Positions 2,168 to 18,595 of a stretch of DNA of 32,000 bases are shown here, piece after piece (within the stretch, counting starts at the first letter, position 1; every line of letters begins with the position of its first letter). A model generated the notes under the pieces. The model was given only the letters and a program-made list of their open reading frames with translations. It ran no database searches and was not told the DNA's origin. This stretch comes from Candidatus Iainarchaeum sp. Its GTDB lineage: Archaea; Iainarchaeota; Iainarchaeia; Iainarchaeales; VGJJ01. The position numbers and the translations under genes were made by a program. The stretch lies in contig JAUYHT010000002.1 in assembly GCA_030688545.1 (NCBI GenBank), forward strand, positions 150,001 to 182,000, read 5' to 3'.

Positions 2168-3073
2168 TCACGCGGGCGCGTCTTGGGTTTCGAAGGAAGG
2201 GGTTCCATTCTCCCCATCTCCCGGAGTGGCCACCGCCACCATGATTTCTCCGAATAGATCATCCTGCCACGCGTTCACACGCTTTTCATGAAGGAGAAAG
2301 AGGAGCGAGAGGAAGAAATCGATTACCTCATGGGAAGAGCGCCCGTGCACGATGGAGTGGAAACGCGCGAACCCTGATTCGTCCGCGTGGCGGGGGATGA
2401 GGTCCATGAATTCCTCCATCTTGCCCTCAAGATTCATTTTGGGGATGGGGAGTGAAAATGCCTGATGGGATTTGCCCTCGCGTTCCTTCTGCGCTTTGGC
2501 CTTCGTCTTTTCGAGAATGGATTCAATGCTCTCCACGAGCATATCTAACGTGACTTTTCCTTCACGAGAAAAGCGTGGGGGAAGGAGTTCGGGCATCATG
2601 CCCCCCAATAATTCTTCCTCGGTGAGGAGTGCGCGAAGCTCAATTCCTTCTTCCTCCAGGGATGAAAGACGCAAGGCGCGTGCCTTGAACTTGAGGAGGA
2701 TGGCGGATGCCAGGATGGCATTGGCGGGGAGACGCAAGTCTGTGGATTGGAGGGAACGGATTTTCTCCAAATATTTGTGGGCCAACTCCTTCACGTCGAT
2801 ATTCCATGGATCCATCCGCTCGCGTTTCACTAGTGAAATTAGAATGGTCTTCCACGCGGGCTGGTCGATGAGATCCACCATGTCTTCCGTTTTATTTATT
2901 TGGGCGGAAGGATTTTCCATCAACTCGACGCCCTCGAAATCGGCATCTGGATCGTCAACCTTCTTTTTTTCAGTCACCCGTTTTCGATGGGACCGCGCAG
3001 TCATCCTTCGGGGGAGGGGGATTATCCATATAATCCTGTCTTTTGGGGGAGGGAAATTTTCTTCAATGGTCAT
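2168..3073 (-). CDS. scpA: segregation and condensation protein A (kleisin ScpA)
   Basis: MDPWNIDVKELAHKYLEKIRSLQSTDLRLPANAILASAILLKFKARAL matches the ScpA N-terminal domain. An alternative ATG at 3004 (MTARSH) would leave room for a divergent promoter. Confidence 0.8.
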   Translation of the reverse strand: MTIEENFPPPKDRIIWIIPLPRRMTARSHRKRVTEKKKVDDPDADFEGVELMENPSAQINKTEDMVDLIDQPAWKTILISLVKRERMDPWNIDVKELAHKYLEKIRSLQSTDLRLPANAILASAILLKFKARALRLSSLEEEGIELRALLTEEELLGGMMPELLPPRFSREGKVTLDMLVESIESILEKTKAKAQKEREGKSHQAFSLPIPKMNLEGKMEEFMDLIPRHADESGFARFHSIVHGRSSHEVIDFFLSLLFLLHEKRVNAWQDDLFGEIMVAVATPGDGENGTPSFETQDAPA

Positions 3074-3154
3074 TATATGGGGAAAAAAAATGCTATGGAA
3101 AACAATGGTTCTTGGGGGAAATCGTTTCAGGAAGGCCTAAACGGGCCCCACGGC

Positions 3155-3162
3155 TTTTTATT
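3155..3162 (+). promoter_or_regulatory. TATA-like box upstream of the KaiC-like ATPase gene
   Basis: TTTTTATT lies about 27 nt upstream of the in-frame ATG at 3185. Confidence 0.35.
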
Positions 3163-3172
3163 CCCCGAGAGA

Positions 3173-3901
3173 ATGGCTCGGAGTATGAAGCGCATGGCCT
3201 CCGGGGTGCCGGGATTTGACGAGCTGGTGGAAGGGGGTTTTCCGGAAGGGGCATCGGTGCTCATCAGCGGTGGACCAGGGGCGGGAAAAACCATTTTCGC
3301 GATGCAATACATCTATGAGGGGGCCCGCTCGTACAACGAACCCGGGTTGTATGTCACCCTCGAAACGGGTTTGAAGGACATCACCTGGAACATGCAGAGC
3401 TTCCGGTGGGATATCAAATCCCTTCAAGACAAAAACATGATGAAGATTTACCGGCTTAATTTTTCCCCTACTAATTCCACGGAGGAGGTGGAGGACCAAA
3501 TCTCAAAAGAATTGTCGATTATCACCAAGATGGTTGACTCCATCGACGCCAAACGCCTGGTGATTGATTCCACCACCGCCTTCGGGGTTTGGGTCAAAGA
3601 CCATGGGGCTCTGCGCCACCTCCTCTTCGAATTCGTGAATGGCCTAAAGGATATTGGATGCACCACCCTCCTCACGAGCGAAGTAGCAGGAGAAGATCGG
3701 AACAAGTTTTCCGCTTTTGGGGTGGAAGAGTTTGTGGTTGATGGAGTGGTGGCCCTGTATTTCATCCCTCCTAACCGGAGCATTTTCGTGCGTAAACTCA
3801 GGGGAACGGACCATTCTAAAGCCGTTCATGCCTTCGACATTGAAGAAAACGGCATCGTCGTCAGGCCTAAGGATGAAATTCCCTGGGGCGGGTTGCGTTA
3901 A
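3173..3901 (+). CDS. single-domain KaiC-like / RecA-superfamily ATPase
   Basis: GVPGFDELVEGGFPEGASVLISGGPGAGKT (Walker A) and LVIDS (Walker B-like). The first 91 codons of the track ORF (from 2900) overlap scpA and are rejected. In-frame ATGs at 3173, 3185 and 3194 are all possible starts. Confidence 0.85.
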   Translation: MARSMKRMASGVPGFDELVEGGFPEGASVLISGGPGAGKTIFAMQYIYEGARSYNEPGLYVTLETGLKDITWNMQSFRWDIKSLQDKNMMKIYRLNFSPTNSTEEVEDQISKELSIITKMVDSIDAKRLVIDSTTAFGVWVKDHGALRHLLFEFVNGLKDIGCTTLLTSEVAGEDRNKFSAFGVEEFVVDGVVALYFIPPNRSIFVRKLRGTDHSKAVHAFDIEENGIVVRPKDEIPWGGLR

Positions 3902-12203: not shown

Positions 12204-12992
12204 ATGAGAAGGATGAACCTGGAAGCGGCCAAGAGACGGTTGGATAATGCACTCGCGCGGAAAGACCTCGTCATGCTCGTGGGAGAATGCAAGGTAAAAT
12301 ACCAGGGGCGGGCGGCCAGCAACCTGGCTTATGGGAGTAGGTTGTTGCTCATCAAGGGGGATGGGAGTTTTGCCATTCACCAAAACAGGTTGTTGCGTCC
12401 CACCAACTATTTGATGTCCTCTCATTGGTCAACTTCCCTGGAAGAAGGAAGATTAATCGTATCGGCCACGAAACGGAATCCCAAGGAGACCCTCATCGTC
12501 TCCCTGAAAGATGTGGAGATGCTCCAAGTGCACACCATGGAGGACCGGGATGACGATTTCAAGCTTGTGGGGACAGAGAAAGAGCTGAATGACCAGCTCA
12601 TGGGGAGCTTGGATGTCCTGGAAAAAGGATTGCGCCCGCTCAAGCAGGAGAGCGTACTAAGGAAGGGGTTGGTGGATATCATGGCGGAGGATACGAATGG
12701 AAATCTCTGCGTCATTGAACTGAAACGACGGCAGGCGGACTACAATTCCGTGATGCAATTACAACGATATGTGCACGAGGTGCGCAAGCAGAAGAATGCC
12801 AAGGTCCGTGGTCTCCTCGTGGCCCCCACCATCGGACGGCAAGCCCTGGAACTCCTGAAAGGGTATGGATTGGAATACTTCTCATACACATTTGATGTTA
12901 CTCAACCCCGGGTAACCATTGATGGTATCGACACCAAACAACGCACCATATTCCAGGCGCTCGGGAATAATGGGGCTACTAAAAAAATATAA
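12204..12992 (+). CDS. nucS: endonuclease NucS/EndoMS
   Basis: LVGECKVKYQGRAASNLAYGSRLLLIKGDGSFAIHQ in the N-terminal domain, and VDIMAEDTNGNLCVIELKRRQA in the RecB-like nuclease core. The C-terminal KQRTIFQAL loosely resembles a PCNA-interacting tail. The track start at 12171 is GTG; ATGs occur at 12204 and 12213. Confidence 0.9.
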   Translation: MRRMNLEAAKRRLDNALARKDLVMLVGECKVKYQGRAASNLAYGSRLLLIKGDGSFAIHQNRLLRPTNYLMSSHWSTSLEEGRLIVSATKRNPKETLIVSLKDVEMLQVHTMEDRDDDFKLVGTEKELNDQLMGSLDVLEKGLRPLKQESVLRKGLVDIMAEDTNGNLCVIELKRRQADYNSVMQLQRYVHEVRKQKNAKVRGLLVAPTIGRQALELLKGYGLEYFSYTFDVTQPRVTIDGIDTKQRTIFQALGNNGATKKI

Positions 12993-13063
12993 TCGACCGA
13001 CGAGGAGAAAAATAGGATAACAAGGGAAATATTGATTTGGTTTAACACTTCCATTAAATTATT

Positions 13064-13123
13064 CGGCCGCCGGGGATTCAAAGAATCCCCTCGTCCATCG
13101 GGGCGGCCGATCGAAAGCGGCCC
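13064..13123. repeat. GC-rich structured repeat, copy 1
   Basis: CGGCCGCC-GGGGATTC-AAA-GAATCCCC-TCGTCCATCGG-GGCGGCCG-ATCGAAAG-CGGCCC. Confidence 0.8.
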
Positions 13124-13161
13124 TGGTTGAAAAGTGGACATAGGAATGAAACAAATTGTTA

Positions 13162-13221
13162 CGGCCGCTGGGAGGTCAACGACCTCCCACGTCCCTCGGT
13201 GCGGCCGGACGAAAACGGCCC
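13162..13221. repeat. GC-rich structured repeat, copy 2
   Basis: CGGCCGCT-GGGAGGTC-AAC-GACCTCCC-ACGTCCCTCGG-TGCGGCCG-GACGAAAA-CGGCCC. Confidence 0.8.
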
Positions 13222-13280
13222 TCAAAATCGTGCAGCCGGAGGAAAGCGGAAATTGTCGTCGTTCGGATTAAGTGTCGTTC

Positions 13281-13339
13281 CGGCCGCCGGGAGGGTGTAA
13301 CCCTCCCTCGTCCATCGGGGCGGCCGGACGAAAACGGCC
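13281..13339. repeat. GC-rich structured repeat, copy 3 (abuts the stop codon of the minus-strand gene)
   Basis: CGGCCGCC-GGGAGGGT-GTA-ACCCTCCC-TCGTCCATCGG-GGCGGCCG-GACGAAAA-CGGCC. Confidence 0.8.
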
Positions 13340-13836
13340 TAGTGCTGCTGCAAAATCCCCCCCATGTAGATTAGGGGGAGGCCGCTCACCAGGGCAAGGG
13401 CTATGGATCCATTGTTCGCCAAGGTGGCAGGGGAGAATGTCAAGACGAGGAAGAGGAGCAGGTGCAATCCCCCCACGCCATACCAGAAATGCTTAGTCGT
13501 CCATACCAATCCGGTGGCCAGGAATCCGATGGCCGTGACCAATGCCCAGTAGGCCCATGGATCAGGGATGAGCGCGGGAACCAATTGGGAGGCAAACAGC
13601 CAATGATACACCATCCCGAGGATGACCACGACCAGCCAGACATGCACCACTTTGTTCTTGGACCAATGGGGAACCCATTTGATCATTCCTCCAATGCCAA
13701 TGAGGGAGAGCAATGTCCACAATGGCAAGGGGGTTGGGAAGGATGGATTATTCAAATAGAATTGATAAATCCCATATCCGAAGAGGGTGATGAGACCCCA
13801 CAATAGGATGGATTTGGAAAACCCGCTCATGGCCAT
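13339..13836 (-). CDS. hypothetical polytopic membrane protein (about 5 TM)
   Basis: 165-aa ORF that is almost entirely hydrophobic helices rich in W/Y/G. ATG at 13836 with a TATA-like box about 28 nt upstream. Confidence 0.6.
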   Translation of the reverse strand: MAMSGFSKSILLWGLITLFGYGIYQFYLNNPSFPTPLPLWTLLSLIGIGGMIKWVPHWSKNKVVHVWLVVVILGMVYHWLFASQLVPALIPDPWAYWALVTAIGFLATGLVWTTKHFWYGVGGLHLLLFLVLTFSPATLANNGSIALALVSGLPLIYMGGILQQH

Positions 13837-13860
13837 ACGCTTTCTCCTCCAGTGTTGGAT

Positions 13861-13868
13861 GTTAAAAG
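13861..13868 (-). promoter_or_regulatory. TATA-like box for the 13339..13836 gene
   Basis: The minus strand reads CTTTTAAC, 25-32 nt upstream of ATG 13836. Confidence 0.35.
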
Positions 13869-13882
13869 AGAAGGCTCAAAGG

Positions 13883-13890
13883 TTTAAAAG
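13883..13890 (+). promoter_or_regulatory. TATA-like box for the surface-protein gene
   Basis: TTTAAAAG lies 21-28 nt upstream of ATG 13911. Confidence 0.4.
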
Positions 13891-13910
13891 CCTGAAGCGG
13901 GTGGGAAGTA

Positions 13911-16343
13911 ATGGTTGATATGGCAAGGAAAATGGGAATCATTGGCCTACTCCTTTTACTGGCTACCAGTGGGTTCGCCCTGGCCGCCGATCCCCCGAGT
14001 GGGTTGGATGCCACGCTCGCGTCGATGGTGACGAATGGATATGATGCCATTTATTCCAATCGGGGATGGTCCTCCTTGTATGACTTGCCCCAGACACGAT
14101 TTTCGTTAGACGAAGCGGATTTTTATGATAATGCCGCCGACTTTGGAGAAACCGGGATGTATGGCCTTGCGCTGCGTCAATTGGCCAACCCGGAGTATGA
14201 CCCATTCGGTATTTCGGAGGATGTAGAAACGCAAACTAAGAAATTGGGAGCCAATATCCTACCGTGGATTTGGGTTCCCGATACGGAAGATTTTGGGACG
14301 GCGGATGGGGCGTTAATGCCCAATGGGGGATTGGCCTATGTTCGGCCGGAGGTGCATGGCATTGTTGTCACGGACAACCAGTGCCGGGATGCCACGCTTC
14401 CCTATAATGAATATAGCATTCCTATTGACACGGTTAACAAGATCCCATTCTCCAACCTGCAAGGGATTGCGGGAACAGGGATCGCCTTACTTAATGCCGC
14501 CCAGAAGGATGAGACGAATCGAGATTCCTATTTGCGCATTGCCGAGCGCATGGGAACCCTCATTCTGGACAGCATGATTACTCCCGAAGGGGAAACATTT
14601 GGATTTCACCCCAATGAGATAATGGACAAATATGATAAAAGTATTCCCATCGGGATGGTGCCGTACCAATTCGCCCTAAAAACCACGGGGGAAGACACCC
14701 TTTCCTGTGGGGATGGGGGGACCATCAAACTCAATGAGAACCGGAAGACCTATCTGGCTTTGGCGGGGGTGTTCCTACAACACTTGCATGCCCAAACCGG
14801 GGAAGAAAAATTCGAGCGCGGCGCGAACTATATCTCGGAAGCCATCCTCTCCCAATTACAGTGCGACGGGAGCTTTGTGGATTACACCCGTTGGGAGGGG
14901 CCGGGGATCTATTCATACGTATGCAAACCCACTGATGGGAGCGCGGAATACGAAGCCTATCCTTCCAATGTGGCCGTGAGCCAGACGCAGGGATGGATAA
15001 TTGATTCGGCGCTCATCCTCAACCTCTTGCGTCTGAAAGATGACACCATTTATGTGTCGGATAAAGAATACAAGCGGTCGGTGCACTATTTCTTGGAGCT
15101 TGAGGAAACCGAAACGGGATCGGGATTCACTCGAAATGGAGACCCCATCAAGTACGCGAGCTATTCATTGGACATCCAAAACAGAGCGTATGGCCAGGTG
15201 CTCTTGGCCAATGTTTTCCTCCGCGCCTCCTGCCAGGAAAACGATTCTGGTATTGAATCCCGGCTCCAGACGAAAGCCTATCAATTAATCAACGGGGCCA
15301 ACACCGTTGTTCCCGCGGAATTGGATTACAAGATCGGCAGTGCCTTCATAGGAGACCCGGGGTTGCATGCGTATGCGCTCTCGGCCGCTGCGGACTCATG
15401 GAAAATAATCACGCGGGGATGTGAGGATTGCCGTGATAACGATGGCGACGGATACATTGATGGGGGGTGCGCCGGGGATATTGTGAAATACGATTGCAAC
15501 GACAACGATGCCTCCATCCACCCAGGGGCAGAGGAGGTATGCGATATGGTGGACAACGATTGCGATGGCGTGGTTGATAATGGATTCGATTTTGATGGGG
15601 ATGGTTATAGTGTGTGCAGCGAACCGGCGGACTGCAATGATGACGAATCGGATATTTATCCCGGGGCACCCGAAATAATCGACCAGAAGGATAATGATTG
15701 TAATCTCATCCCAGATGATACGGGGGTGCAGATCCATGTCACTAATGATTTGAACGCGGGAATAGGGAACGTGGATATTCTCCTCGTGGATTATGGGAAC
15801 GCCTGCATCAATGCGTTCAGCGATTTGGTGGGGAGTTTCGACCTGATTCGAAATAAGTGCACCATCGTCAAAACCTGCACCACGGATGAAAATGGGAGCT
15901 GCCTCATGTCCCTTACTAATAGTGGAAAATTCCAAGCATTGGGGGTGGTGGGGGATAAGGGATTGGAATCCGGACCCATCGAGTTCTCCCCGGGAGGACG
16001 GAATGAGGTTTCTCTCCAGGCCAAAGGGTTTGACGATAGCGCCGTGGATCAGAATGATAGTCGGTTGGCCAACAACCCCTCTCTGCTGGAATCAAACCCC
16101 TATTTGGGATTGGGACTTCTCGTGGTGGTATTGATCATCCTCGGGCTGGGAGGACTCTATATGCACAAGACCGGGAGACTGGGTGCAAAAGGAAAAGGGA
16201 ATAGTAGCCCATCGGCCTTGGCCACCCCAAAGAAAGGGTTTTCATTTCCCAAGATTACATTGCCAAAAATCCCCAAAGTAAAAATTTCAGTTGAGCCGGA
16301 AAAGAAAGGAAAAGTGTTGGGAAAATCGGATGGGAAGAAGTGA
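13911..16343 (+). CDS. large secreted, C-terminally membrane-anchored surface protein with Cys/Asp-rich MopE-type (putative metal-binding) repeats
   Basis: Signal peptide is MGIIGLLLLLATSGFALA. Repeats include CRDNDGDGYIDGGC, CNDNDASIHPGAEEVCDMVDNDCDGVVDNGFDFDGDGY and CNDDESDIYPGAPEIIDQKDNDCN. A C-terminal TM segment (LGLGLLVVVLIILGLGGLY) is followed by a Lys-rich tail. Confidence 0.8.
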   Translation: MVDMARKMGIIGLLLLLATSGFALAADPPSGLDATLASMVTNGYDAIYSNRGWSSLYDLPQTRFSLDEADFYDNAADFGETGMYGLALRQLANPEYDPFGISEDVETQTKKLGANILPWIWVPDTEDFGTADGALMPNGGLAYVRPEVHGIVVTDNQCRDATLPYNEYSIPIDTVNKIPFSNLQGIAGTGIALLNAAQKDETNRDSYLRIAERMGTLILDSMITPEGETFGFHPNEIMDKYDKSIPIGMVPYQFALKTTGEDTLSCGDGGTIKLNENRKTYLALAGVFLQHLHAQTGEEKFERGANYISEAILSQLQCDGSFVDYTRWEGPGIYSYVCKPTDGSAEYEAYPSNVAVSQTQGWIIDSALILNLLRLKDDTIYVSDKEYKRSVHYFLELEETETGSGFTRNGDPIKYASYSLDIQNRAYGQVLLANVFLRASCQENDSGIESRLQTKAYQLINGANTVVPAELDYKIGSAFIGDPGLHAYALSAAADSWKIITRGCEDCRDNDGDGYIDGGCAGDIVKYDCNDNDASIHPGAEEVCDMVDNDCDGVVDNGFDFDGDGYSVCSEPADCNDDESDIYPGAPEIIDQKDNDCNLIPDDTGVQIHVTNDLNAGIGNVDILLVDYGNACINAFSDLVGSFDLIRNKCTIVKTCTTDENGSCLMSLTNSGKFQALGVVGDKGLESGPIEFSPGGRNEVSLQAKGFDDSAVDQNDSRLANNPSLLESNPYLGLGLLVVVLIILGLGGLYMHKTGRLGAKGKGNSSPSALATPKKGFSFPKITLPKIPKVKISVEPEKKGKVLGKSDGKK

Positions 16344-16396: not shown

Positions 16397-17677
16397 TTAT
16401 TTCTTTCCGCCGAATTCGGCCTTTTTACCTAATTCTTCCTCGATGCGGAGGAGGCGGTTGTATTTGCTGGTGCGCTCGCCCCGCATGAGGCCGCCGCACT
16501 TGATGTAATTGGATTCCCATCCCACCGCGAGGTCAGCGATGAACGTATCTTCAGTATCTCCCGCGCGATCCGAGATGATGGTGGTCCACTTCGCGGTTTG
16601 GGCGAGCATAAATGATTCCAGGGACTCGGAAAGCGTACCCACTTGATTGGGTTTCAAATCTAACCCATTGCAGGCCTTGAGATCCAGAACGCGTTTGATT
16701 CGGGTGGGGTTGGAAACTAACAAGTCGTCCCCAACTATGGCATGCTTGTGGCCGAAACGCGTCATGGCCCCCTGGAAACCGGGAATGTCATCCTCGGCAA
16801 AAGGGTCAATGAGCAAGGAAATGGGATAGGATTCAAGAAGGTTAGAATAGAAATTGACGAGCTGACGGTGCGTCATGGTCTTCCCAGTCAGGTGATACAT
16901 CCCTTTTTTCCTGAAATGAGACGCAGCCACATTGATGCCTAAACGGATTTGCTTATCGTATCCCAACTCTTTCACGGACGCGAGGATGAGGTTGAAGGCA
17001 ACCTCAATATCGGCGGTTGCGAGCGCCATGCCCCCCGAATCCCCTGCATTGAGGGAATGGGAATCGAATTGTTTGGAAGCGGAATCGCGCACGGTATGAT
17101 AGATCTCTGACCCCATCTGGATGGCATGGGCCATGCTCCGGGCCTTCAGGGGTTCGAGGAGAATCTCCTGAAAGGGCAAAACATTTCCCTTGGCATGGCT
17201 CCCTCCCGTGAATAGGGTGAATAATGGCATGGGCAAGGAAAAGGGTTTGGTACTCCCATCCTTTAGGGTGCGCAGATGCTCATAGAGTGGTTTTTCCTGG
17301 AGCAAAGCCCCCAACCGGGCGACGGCGAGGGAGGCGGCGATGGTGGCATTCCCCCCCAATTTGGTCTTTTGAGGGGTTCCATCGGCGTCAAGAATGAGCT
17401 TATCTACCTCATTTTGAGCGCAGGCATTCGCATCCTTGAGCTCGCGGGCTAATACGGTGTGGATTGATTTCAAGGGGGACTGGACCCCCATTCCGAGAAA
17501 GGGTTTTTCGCCATCCCTCAAATCGTGGGCCTCAAACCGACCTTTACTGACTCCAGATGGGGCCATGGCCGTGCCGATCATCCCATTGGAATGGGCCTCA
17601 ACCTCCACTGTGGGAAACCCCCGGGCATCCAATACCCAGCGCCCCTTCAGTTTTTCGACAGCAAACGGACTTTTCAT
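16397..17677 (-). CDS. eno: enolase-family protein with substituted catalytic/metal-ligand residues
   Basis: Collinear enolase blocks are PSGVSKGRFEAHDLRDG, GGSHA, IVGDDLLVSNP, LKPNQVGTLSES, TEDTFIADLAVG and KYNRLLRIEEELG. However, GDSGG replaces GDEGG, GINVAAS replaces (A/G)(M/L)DCA(A/S)S, LLIDPF replaces SIED, and SDRAGD replaces SHRSGE. Confidence 0.9.
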   Translation of the reverse strand: MKSPFAVEKLKGRWVLDARGFPTVEVEAHSNGMIGTAMAPSGVSKGRFEAHDLRDGEKPFLGMGVQSPLKSIHTVLARELKDANACAQNEVDKLILDADGTPQKTKLGGNATIAASLAVARLGALLQEKPLYEHLRTLKDGSTKPFSLPMPLFTLFTGGSHAKGNVLPFQEILLEPLKARSMAHAIQMGSEIYHTVRDSASKQFDSHSLNAGDSGGMALATADIEVAFNLILASVKELGYDKQIRLGINVAASHFRKKGMYHLTGKTMTHRQLVNFYSNLLESYPISLLIDPFAEDDIPGFQGAMTRFGHKHAIVGDDLLVSNPTRIKRVLDLKACNGLDLKPNQVGTLSESLESFMLAQTAKWTTIISDRAGDTEDTFIADLAVGWESNYIKCGGLMRGERTSKYNRLLRIEEELGKKAEFGGKK

Positions 17678-17875: not shown

Positions 17876-18595
17876 TCAGGACACCCCAGATCGTTCACGC
17901 TGGCGTTCCAAAACCACCTTCTTGATGAGGGGAAAACCCTTCCCGCCCAACAATTCCTCGGCGATGGTGGTGGTGACGAAGGTATCGAGAAAATTGTAAT
18001 TGGGAGGAGATTCTTTCCCCTCGAGGAGACGCTGAATGCTATTCCAATCCCGCGACACATACCATAACCCTTCAATTTTTTCAGCGATGGGTTTGTCTCG
18101 GGAGGAAAGGGCATCGGTCATGAATGCCATGTCCACTTTTGAGAAGCGCCGGGTGTAAAACCCATCAAACCAATAATCATGCCCGATCAGGAGGGCTTTT
18201 TCAGGGGTGGCTCCCTTTTTCTCCAGAATGGCTTGCATCTGGACCTGACGAAAATACTCATCTTTGCAGTATGGGTCTTCCCCGCAGCGTTGATCATAAA
18301 GGATTTTATCCTCAGGGGACTTGGACGCGATATAAGCCTCATCCACGGCAAACACCATGGAGGGGTCAAAATAGGAAAAGAGGCTGAAATCTTTCATTTT
18401 AGTGTCGAAAACCTCTTTCTGGAGGGTCGAAATGAGAAAAATCCTCAATTCTGGATGGGATTTTCCGAATGTTTTCATGCCATCTAATAATGCCTTCGTC
18501 CCCTCTATCTTTAGGTTTGGATTGATCTTCCCGGGGATGAGGATATCCTCCAGGCAGAAAATAAGTATATCCTTAACCAAGGTGGCCATTCCCAT
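17876..18595 (-). CDS. hypothetical protein, possibly a HAD-like fold with a non-canonical motif I
   Basis: LIFCLEDILI aligns by eye with HAD motif I (hhhhDxDGTL), FLIST with motif II, and LLIGHDYWFDG with motif IV. This is weak and not search-supported. Confidence 0.5.
   Translation of the reverse strand: MGMATLVKDILIFCLEDILIPGKINPNLKIEGTKALLDGMKTFGKSHPELRIFLISTLQKEVFDTKMKDFSLFSYFDPSMVFAVDEAYIASKSPEDKILYDQRCGEDPYCKDEYFRQVQMQAILEKKGATPEKALLIGHDYWFDGFYTRRFSKVDMAFMTDALSSRDKPIAEKIEGLWYVSRDWNSIQRLLEGKESPPNYNFLDTFVTTTIAEELLGGKGFPLIKKVVLERQRERSGVS

Follow-up and report, generated by a model that had tools for sequence, protein, structure and literature searches.

The question raised by this locus is whether a gene with the fold, the domain architecture and the public label of an enolase still encodes one. 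Few enzymes are conserved as strongly as enolase, whose catalytic residues are regarded as invariant. We analyzed a stretch of 32,000 nucleotides from Candidatus Iainarchaeum sp. (contig JAUYHT010000002.1, positions 150,001 to 182,000), hereafter called the window, which carries an enolase homologue (positions 16397-17677, minus strand) with several replaced active-site residues. The evidence presented below describes an inherited gene under strong selection whose product may no longer carry out the textbook reaction.

An enolase homologue with a substituted active site

The open reading frame (ORF) is intact, begins with ATG and encodes 426 amino acids followed by a stop codon. Its product is a 100% match to GenBank MDP2666144.1, a 'phosphopyruvate hydratase' from Candidatus Diapherotrites archaeon on a 418,565-bp contig; MDZ4256795.1 is nearly identical, and a near-identical protein is present in two other assemblies. 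The enolase N-terminal capping domain (PF03952; residues 7-135, positions 17273-17659, minus strand; Pfam 4.8e-37), which includes the Ser39 lid loop, is followed by the C-terminal TIM-barrel domain (PF00113; residues 146-426, positions 16400-17242, minus strand; Pfam 4.5e-82). The protein is 40-47% identical to canonical enolases (EC 4.2.1.11; yeast ENO1, the T. brucei enolase 2PTW and M. jannaschii MJ0232, 2PA6), with which it shares the two-domain fold, and it occupies the genomic slot of a related lineage's canonical enolase. An AlphaFold2 model (predicted local distance difference test, pLDDT, 88.8; predicted template modelling score, pTM, 0.90) was superposed by Foldseek on solved enolases with a template modelling (TM) score of 0.95 and a root mean square deviation of 1.5-1.7 Å. 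By fold, domain models and ancestry the protein is a member of the enolase subgroup, but it lacks two features that define the enzyme mechanistically, the general acid and the complete Mg(I) triad.

A preliminary description of the stretch had claimed that the ORF is collinear with canonical enolases and that four catalytic or metal-binding positions are substituted. Both claims held up. A pairwise HMMER alignment to the T. brucei enolase is collinear over residues 4-426 without gaps near any of the sites. The same register resulted from a MAFFT alignment of the protein with yeast ENO1 and 120 database homologues and from the Foldseek superposition. In all three alignments (yeast numbering for canonical positions), the general acid Glu211 corresponds to Ser214 (codon TCG, 17036-17038), the Mg(I) ligand Asp246 to Asn249 (AAT, 16931-16933), the Mg(I) ligand Glu295 to Ile290 (ATT, 16808-16810), and His373 to Asp370 (GAT, 16568-16570), all on the minus strand; the codon coordinates given previously are exact. 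Further changes are absent from the preliminary description: the phosphate-binding Ser375 is Ala372 (16562-16564, minus strand), Leu343 of barrel strand 6, which precedes the base Lys345 by two positions, is Asp340 (16658-16660, minus strand), Glu47 is Asp52, Pro216 is Leu, Ala399/Pro400 are Gly/Leu, and the conserved Asn155 is replaced by Thr155 (17213-17215).

The residues listed as retained in the preliminary description were likewise recovered, namely Ser39 (Ser44; 17546-17548, minus strand), Glu168 (Glu171), Asp320 (Asp317), Lys345 (Lys342; 16652-16654, minus strand) and Lys396 (Lys393). His159 (His161), Gln167 (Gln170), Asp296 (Asp291), Arg374 (Arg371) and Asp321 are also kept. The loop around His159 carries a one-residue insertion, Lys163 (17189-17191; GGSHAKGN instead of GGKHA-GN), which is found in the window enolase only among its close relatives.

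In enolase, Lys345 takes the proton from C2 and Glu211 protonates the leaving hydroxyl. Poyner and colleagues are said to have found in 1996 that the E211Q exchange lowers activity roughly 10^5-fold while C2-proton exchange is still permitted. Compared to this scheme, the window protein has lost the acid and its assisting residue (Glu211 in GDEGG and His373), having Ser214 in a GDSGG motif and Asp370 instead. The base Lys345 and the enolate-stabilising Lys396 are both present. Mg(I) is bound by the equivalents of Asp246, Glu295 and Asp320 and Mg(II) by Ser39, while the substrate is bound by the equivalents of Glu168, Glu211, Lys345, Arg374 and Ser375 (PMC4450660). In the window protein the Mg(I) triad reads Asn249/Ile290/Asp317, with a single carboxylate left. 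Ser44 of the lid loop, the residue that would bind Mg(II), is kept together with the phosphate/carboxylate binders His161, Gln170 and Arg371, yet Ser375, a further binder, has become Ala372 and the His159 loop is one residue longer. The substitutions are not chance variation, because Glu211, Asp246, Glu295 and Asp320 are invariant in the 92 nearest canonical homologues and His373 is nearly so (one Gln, in P0117).

A clade of variant enolases at the ancestral locus

A search over 5.8 billion clustered proteins identified 27 further clusters with 55-64% identity to the window protein (57-64% for full-length sequences); the core pattern of substitutions recurs in all of these and in two additional genomic loci. 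The variant thus comprises about 30 sequence clusters from metagenome-assembled genomes (MAGs) of Diapherotrites/Iainarchaeota. Glu occurs in none of them at position 211 (T in 13, S in 10, N in two, and K, L and G), and Asp in none at position 246 (S in 17, N in four, V in three, I and T in two each). S375A and Arg42 are found in all members, and H373D, D210E and L343N/D in nearly all. At position 373, Asp is present in 26 of the 29 members covering the site, and a subgroup consisting of P0020, P0023 and L092 has Ala. Read at positions 211/246/295/373, the window protein is S/N/I/D, P0004 as a typical member S/S/E/D, and QQR92353.1 L/N/I/A. Position 343 is N or D in most members. Glu295 is retained in most members; it is replaced in the window enolase and in the group of P0016, P0020, P0023 and L092, with I or V in six members, every one of which has Asp at position 343. 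Lys345, Lys396 and Ser39 do not vary, and the lid-loop stretch SKGRFEAHDLRD around Ser39 in the capping domain is unvarying across the clade.

Below these sequences the next matches are at most 47% identical, and nearly all of them have the full canonical residue set. The phylogeny that the preliminary description had proposed shows that the substitution pattern marks a monophyletic clade (P0001-P0027, P0037, L008 and L092 together with the window protein), recovered in 100 of 100 neighbour-joining bootstraps. A profile of the clade searched against 1.8 billion representatives at 50% identity matched one of them at 839 bits and the next at 470 bits, with no intermediates. The window variant is therefore not a one-off but belongs to a monophyletic Diapherotrites/Iainarchaeota clade. 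The window enolase forms the longest terminal branch within it. We also considered a strong accelerated burst on the stem of the clade and rejected it: the stem is moderately long at 0.28, and the mean depth is 0.52, compared to 0.41 for the sister group, and the ratio of enolase to NucS identity between the clade and L088 (a related MAG, see below) is no lower than within the clade. The N-terminus MKSPFA (codons 1-6, positions 17660-17677 in the window) is unvarying in 26 of 26 aligned full-length members. Canonical DPANN relatives do not have it, their N-termini being variable and mostly shorter. Judged from its conservation, it could be a new interaction or processing motif.

Our literature searches on the clade, on inactive enolases and on glycolysis in Iainarchaeota found no paper describing these proteins. 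In public databases they are labelled 'phosphopyruvate hydratase', 'Enolase' (UniProt) or 'enolase C-terminal domain-like protein'. Scores against TIGR01060, the NCBI equivalog model for phosphopyruvate hydratase, follow the same line: the window protein reaches 382.7 bits, other clade members 405-435 and canonical relatives 510-535, and every clade member tested lies above the cut-off of 300.

The variant gene was inherited in place. In the window and in L003, L004, L005, L007 and L092, which include CP064981.1 (a single, chromosome-scale 1.05-Mb record of assembly GCA_016699555.1, 'Candidatus Iainarchaeum archaeon'), genes follow in the order Lhr helicase, Metallophos, MarR-like helix-turn-helix protein, a 250-aa protein, enolase, a MopE-motif protein, NucS, M24 peptidase and DHH. 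In L088, from a related Diapherotrites MAG, the corresponding place between Lhr/Metallophos and NucS/M24/DHH is taken by P0029, an enolase with the full canonical residue set. In the more distant lineage of L093 and L094, the enolase is preceded at a distance of 32-39 bp by a homologue of the 250-aa protein (33% identity); this enolase is fully canonical in L093 and canonical over the readable N-terminal half in L094. Phosphoribosyl pyrophosphate (PRPP) synthase is encoded divergently upstream in L088, L060 and L093. The variant enolase is the positional ortholog of the canonical enolase, not an extra paralog, and its synteny with the canonical enolases of L088 and L093/L094 indicates that it arose in situ from the lineage's own enolase. 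No second enolase was seen in the 20-kb clade loci examined. A peptide-pattern scan of the genome collection gave more than 600 matching stretches; the 80 loci listed are canonical enolases and one clade member, L008.

Enolases deviating in other ways were encountered in the same searches. Among the 149 nearest representatives at 50% identity, 23 differ at some key site, although a few of these are fragments or reflect alignment gaps. A recurrent E168D+H373A group comprises seven such representatives (P0156, P0184, P0195, P0201, P0249, P0266 and P0267). Singletons include P0136 (S39T, D210Y, E211T, D246H, E295T, K396Q), P0257 (D210L, E211V) and P0264 (D210V, E211S), and P0176, P0226 and P0232 are also deviant. 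The substitution pattern of the window clade is found in none of them. Deviant enolases seem to be commoner than usually assumed. In six DPANN-like enolases (P0083, P0098, P0115, P0117, P0118 and P0120), we noted N155E and D210C/F, in some cases with K396M/I or H373Q; Glu211 and the Mg triad are intact there. Enolase fusions (P0071, P0091, P0121-P0126 and P0133) have canonical key catalytic residues; P0071 contains an RpiB/LacA domain (PF02502), P0091 glycosyltransferase domains, and several others N-terminal extensions of 140-430 aa (total lengths 888, 845, 690, 668, 645 and 548 aa).

Constraint on the pocket and possible functions

The variant enolase is under purifying selection as strong as that on neighbouring housekeeping genes. 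Over the same genome pairs its identity is 58-78%, compared to 69-89% for NucS and Lhr and 46-67% for M24 and DHH. L005 and L092 are the closest pair and carry the most degenerate form of the protein (Q167E, E211L, D246N, E295I, H373A). For this pair, the ratio of nonsynonymous to synonymous substitution rates (dN/dS), read as a comparison between genes, is 0.025 for the enolase, 0.028 for Lhr, 0.034 for NucS and 0.036 for M24. Such strong selection shows that the gene is not a decaying pseudogene. By sequence, the protein thereby fits the operational definition of a pseudoenzyme, with catalytic residues absent and purifying selection maintained.

This constraint is unevenly distributed. Canonical relatives have 74 columns with at least 97% conservation. 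The clade retains 60 of these, and first-shell active-site residues are over-represented among the other 14 (5/11 vs 9/63; Fisher p=0.028). Seventeen positions at least 90% conserved in canonical enolases have been switched, mostly near the pocket. Positions 211, 216, 246, 252 and 400 are relaxed, ranking in the 84th-91st percentile of within-clade variability and admitting hydrophobic residues; position 211 lies at the 91st and position 246 at the 86th percentile, with L, G, K, V and I occurring. Newly fixed are D373 (mostly), A375, E210, D47, S325, R42, His251 and Tyr394. Ser39, His159, Glu168, Asp296, Asp320, Asp321, Lys345, Arg374 and Lys396 are invariant throughout the clade, and both the lid loop and the His159 loop largely so.

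Some of the exchanges are coordinated. Ile or Val takes the place of Glu295 only in members with Asp at position 343 (5/5 vs 3/24; p=0.0005, without phylogenetic correction). Five of the six members that have lost Glu295 carry Asn246; the sixth, P0016, has Ile. His373 is replaced by Ala only together with Q167E (3/3). The combination N246/I295/D343 has been reached by the window enolase and by the P0020/L092 group. A single loss of Glu295 was rejected as an explanation: the members concerned are monophyletic in only six of 100 bootstraps of the enolase tree and in 15 of 200 bootstraps of neighbouring genes, and in a NucS+M24 tree rooted on L088, 165 of 200 bootstraps join the window to the main group. 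Glu295 thus appears, from these trees, to have been lost twice independently.

We favour a protein that is functional and still makes use of its ligand pocket but is unable to perform textbook 2-phosphoglycerate dehydration, and consider this reading evenly poised between right and wrong. The textbook mechanism would be unavailable because the acid and His373 are lost along with two Mg(I) carboxylates out of three, and the pocket itself would still be under selection because the mobile loops are largely invariant and the swaps coordinated. According to this reading, the gene is the positional ortholog of the glycolytic enolase and has been inherited vertically in one Diapherotrites/Iainarchaeota (DPANN) lineage. 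When this lineage arose, replacement of Glu211, His373 and Asp246 dismantled that half of the active site which serves the second chemical step and anchors Mg(I); in the window organism Glu295 has been lost as well. The other half of the pocket is intact, comprising the Ser39 lid with Mg(II), the His159 loop, Gln167/Glu168, Asp320/Asp321, Lys345, Arg374 and Lys396. Such a protein would bind a phospho-acid resembling 2-phosphoglycerate or phosphoenolpyruvate (PEP) together with a metal, and alpha-proton abstraction might still take place. Its role would be that of a ligand-binding protein or of an enzyme with altered chemistry, not that of a flux-carrying glycolytic enolase. We infer the loss of dehydratase activity from the published roles of the replaced residues; ligand binding and the role in the cell are likewise inferred.

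The preliminary description had offered two alternatives, a catalytically dead protein with a moonlighting or structural role and an active site that is rewired or performs different chemistry. This pair of options accommodates all of our findings, but its purely structural variant is disfavoured: the invariant binding and base residues, the conserved lid loops and the swaps argue against a mere scaffold.

Several points weigh against the reading that we favour. The synonymous rates (dS 1.3-2.2) are near saturation, and the dN/dS values can therefore be compared between genes but not taken as absolute. The independence of the two Glu295 losses has 82% bootstrap support from the neighbouring genes, and the covariation statistics rest on two or three independent events. 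Keeping nine pocket residues is by itself not beyond background, since about 81% (60/74) of the near-invariant columns are kept anyway. Moreover, if glycolysis is needed by these organisms and this gene is their sole enolase, the pathway would be incomplete under a non-enolase reading.

A related proposal is that the clade represents a naturally rewired enzyme with an enolase fold, in which metal site and acid have been rebuilt from neighbouring barrel strands once Glu211 and Asp246 had been lost. We regard this as conceivable, though doubtful. Candidate groups for such a reconstruction, as judged from the alignments, are Asp320, Glu295 or Asp343, Asn/Ser246, and Asp373 or Glu167. If it is correct, PEP would be formed by a novel catalytic constellation, or another reaction based on alpha-proton abstraction from a phospho-acid would take place (e.g., epimerisation, or exchange without dehydration), and N246/I295/D343, reached convergently by two lineages, would be a second functional arrangement of the site.

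It is unlikely, in our view, that the clade still interconverts 2-phosphoglycerate and PEP through relocated groups as the organism's only glycolytic enolase, with Asp373 (or Glu167 in the L092 group) as the acid and Asp320, Glu295/Asp343 and Ser/Asn246 as the metal site. Diapherotrites are generally described as fermentative, which we count in favour of this explanation. Pyruvate fermentation genes have been reported from them (PMC8561730), and these count in the same direction. The orthologous position and the lack of a second enolase in the 20-kb loci agree with it as well, as do selection at the level of housekeeping genes and the invariance of Lys345, Lys396, Glu168, Ser39, His159 and Arg374. 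New acidic residues stand beside the lost ones (H373D, L343D/N, D210E), and a carboxylate and an amide apparently exchange positions (E295/N343 vs D343/N246). But the candidate replacements are not conserved: L, G and K occur at position 211, V and I at position 246, Ala at position 373 in the L092 group, and I or V at position 295 in six members. In L092 and P0020, Asp320 is all that remains of the Mg(I) triad, Glu211 is gone, and position 373 holds no acid or His. Against TIGR01060 the clade falls 100-150 bits short of its canonical relatives, and single changes of Glu211 were reportedly nearly fatal to turnover in the work of Poyner in 1996, which we also count against a working enolase.

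We find it similarly improbable that both catalysis and binding have been lost and that the protein serves a structural or moonlighting role independent of the pocket (e.g., linked to RNA processing or the ribosome) which derives from the ancestral enolase. In favour of such a role, the catalytic site erodes step by step and repeatedly: Glu211 and Asp246 disappeared at the base of the clade, followed by two or more losses of Glu295 and a single change of D373 to Ala. Positions 211, 216, 246, 252 and 400 are among the most variable of the clade. An enolase paralog of Methanococci and Thermococci provides a precedent (Makarova et al. 2015; PMC4390880), and the clade-specific MKSPFA segment could offer a new interaction surface. 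However, the Ser39 lid and the His159 loop, which serve mainly for closure over a ligand, are largely invariant, as are nine first-shell residues. The 246/295/343 and 167/373 swaps imply selection on the pocket, and no partner or RNA-related gene context specific to the variant loci was found. An artefact (misaligned register, sequencing or assembly error, or a decaying pseudogene) has practically no chance of being the explanation: its only support is the source in a metagenome-assembled genome, against which stand the intact ORF, the identical protein in an independent record and a near-identical one in two other assemblies, about 30 orthologous clusters from many samples sharing the substitutions, the agreement of three alignment methods and the dN/dS of 0.025.

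Adjacent genes, related families and implications

The gene upstream of the window enolase (17876-18595, minus strand) lies on the same strand and encodes a protein of 239 aa with a HAD-like predicted fold. Homologues of about 250 aa always directly precede the enolase and share its strand, next to variant enolases (L003 9156-9923, L004 9173-9922, L005 8404-9201, L007 9132-9890 and L092 10001-10765) and outgroup canonical enolases (L093 2215-2919 and L094 2537-3247) alike. Only 24 homologues exist among the 5.8 billion proteins, and the protein has no match in Pfam even at E<=1. A profile search of the PDB gave coiled-coil and Rab matches, which we rejected as spurious. Its AlphaFold2 model (pLDDT 90) weakly resembles HAD phosphatases (TM score 0.4-0.5). 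The nucleophilic Asp of motif I is missing (x-L-E instead of D-x-D), and the block GHDYWFDGFYTRRFSKVD is almost invariant. Going by this model, the protein may be a pseudo-phosphatase that acts as a partner to enolase.

On the other side, a MopE-motif protein is encoded convergently to the variant enolase in every clade locus (13911-16343, plus strand, in the window; L003 11321-13837, L004 12061-14559, L005 11095-13623, L007 11290-13803, L092 13122-15608) and is absent from the canonical-enolase locus L088. It has about 810-840 aa and two Cys-rich metal-binding motifs of the MopE type; a signal-like segment marks its N-terminus and a hydrophobic anchor with a Lys-rich tail its C-terminus. The protein evolves fast (45-58% identity; dN/dS 0.083). 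In L088, the otherwise conserved order is broken by an AbiEi/AbiEii toxin-antitoxin pair (12987-14206) between NucS and the M24 peptidase. Elsewhere in the window, a ScpA-like ORF (2168-3073, minus strand) and the ORF of a KaiC-family ATPase (2900-3901, plus strand) overlap by about 170 bp. The true start of the latter is probably further downstream, as its KaiC domain begins at residue 101.

Among known systems, the nearest conceptual precedent is the arCOG01170 paralog family (NF006223/PRK08350). A fast-evolving enolase paralog in Methanococci and Thermococci, which has remained in situ, was inferred to have a non-glycolytic ancillary role (Makarova et al. 2015; PMC4390880). Both cases concern an enolase-family gene that diverged at its ancestral locus, with an inferred shift away from glycolysis. 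The window protein does not belong to that family, though: it scores 49.2 bits against a cut-off of 624 and matches over residues 326-419 only, with 62-70 bits for the clade, and it is 426 aa long compared to about 341 positions in the NF006223 model. Furthermore, the arCOG01170 paralog lies beside ribosomal genes and coexists with a canonical copy, whereas the window variant is a positional ortholog with different neighbours.

Pseudoenzymes with 'migrated' catalytic residues, as reviewed in PMC10211241, are a concept rather than a family, and the window protein fits their definition by sequence. The possible relocations of E295 to D343 and of E211/H373 to D373 would resemble such a migration. 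With the mandelate racemase, muconate cycloisomerase and glucarate dehydratase subgroups of the enolase superfamily, the protein shares the barrel and the Lys base, and these subgroups likewise perform metal-assisted abstraction of an alpha-proton from a carboxylate. Glucarate dehydratase uses Asn as one of its metal ligands; a site made of two carboxylates and an amide is thus not unprecedented. Unlike those subgroups, however, the window protein nests within the enolase subgroup and has the enolase-type N-terminal domain and loops, and its similarity to MR_MLE_C is weak.

Taken together, the ancestral enolase gene of a whole archaeal lineage has exchanged the catalytic acid and one metal ligand while staying under housekeeping-level selection. 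A protein labelled 'enolase' in databases probably does something else there, as far as its residues can tell. Since the tested clade members pass the TIGR01060 cut-off, automated metabolic reconstructions will count the variant as an enolase, and together with public annotation they probably over-call complete lower glycolysis in these DPANN genomes. The clade is a natural experiment that separates retention of the enolase fold and pocket from bulk dehydration of 2-phosphoglycerate, and it bears on the long-discussed non-glycolytic roles of enolases. If the protein is active, it would represent an alternative catalytic solution in a textbook enzyme.

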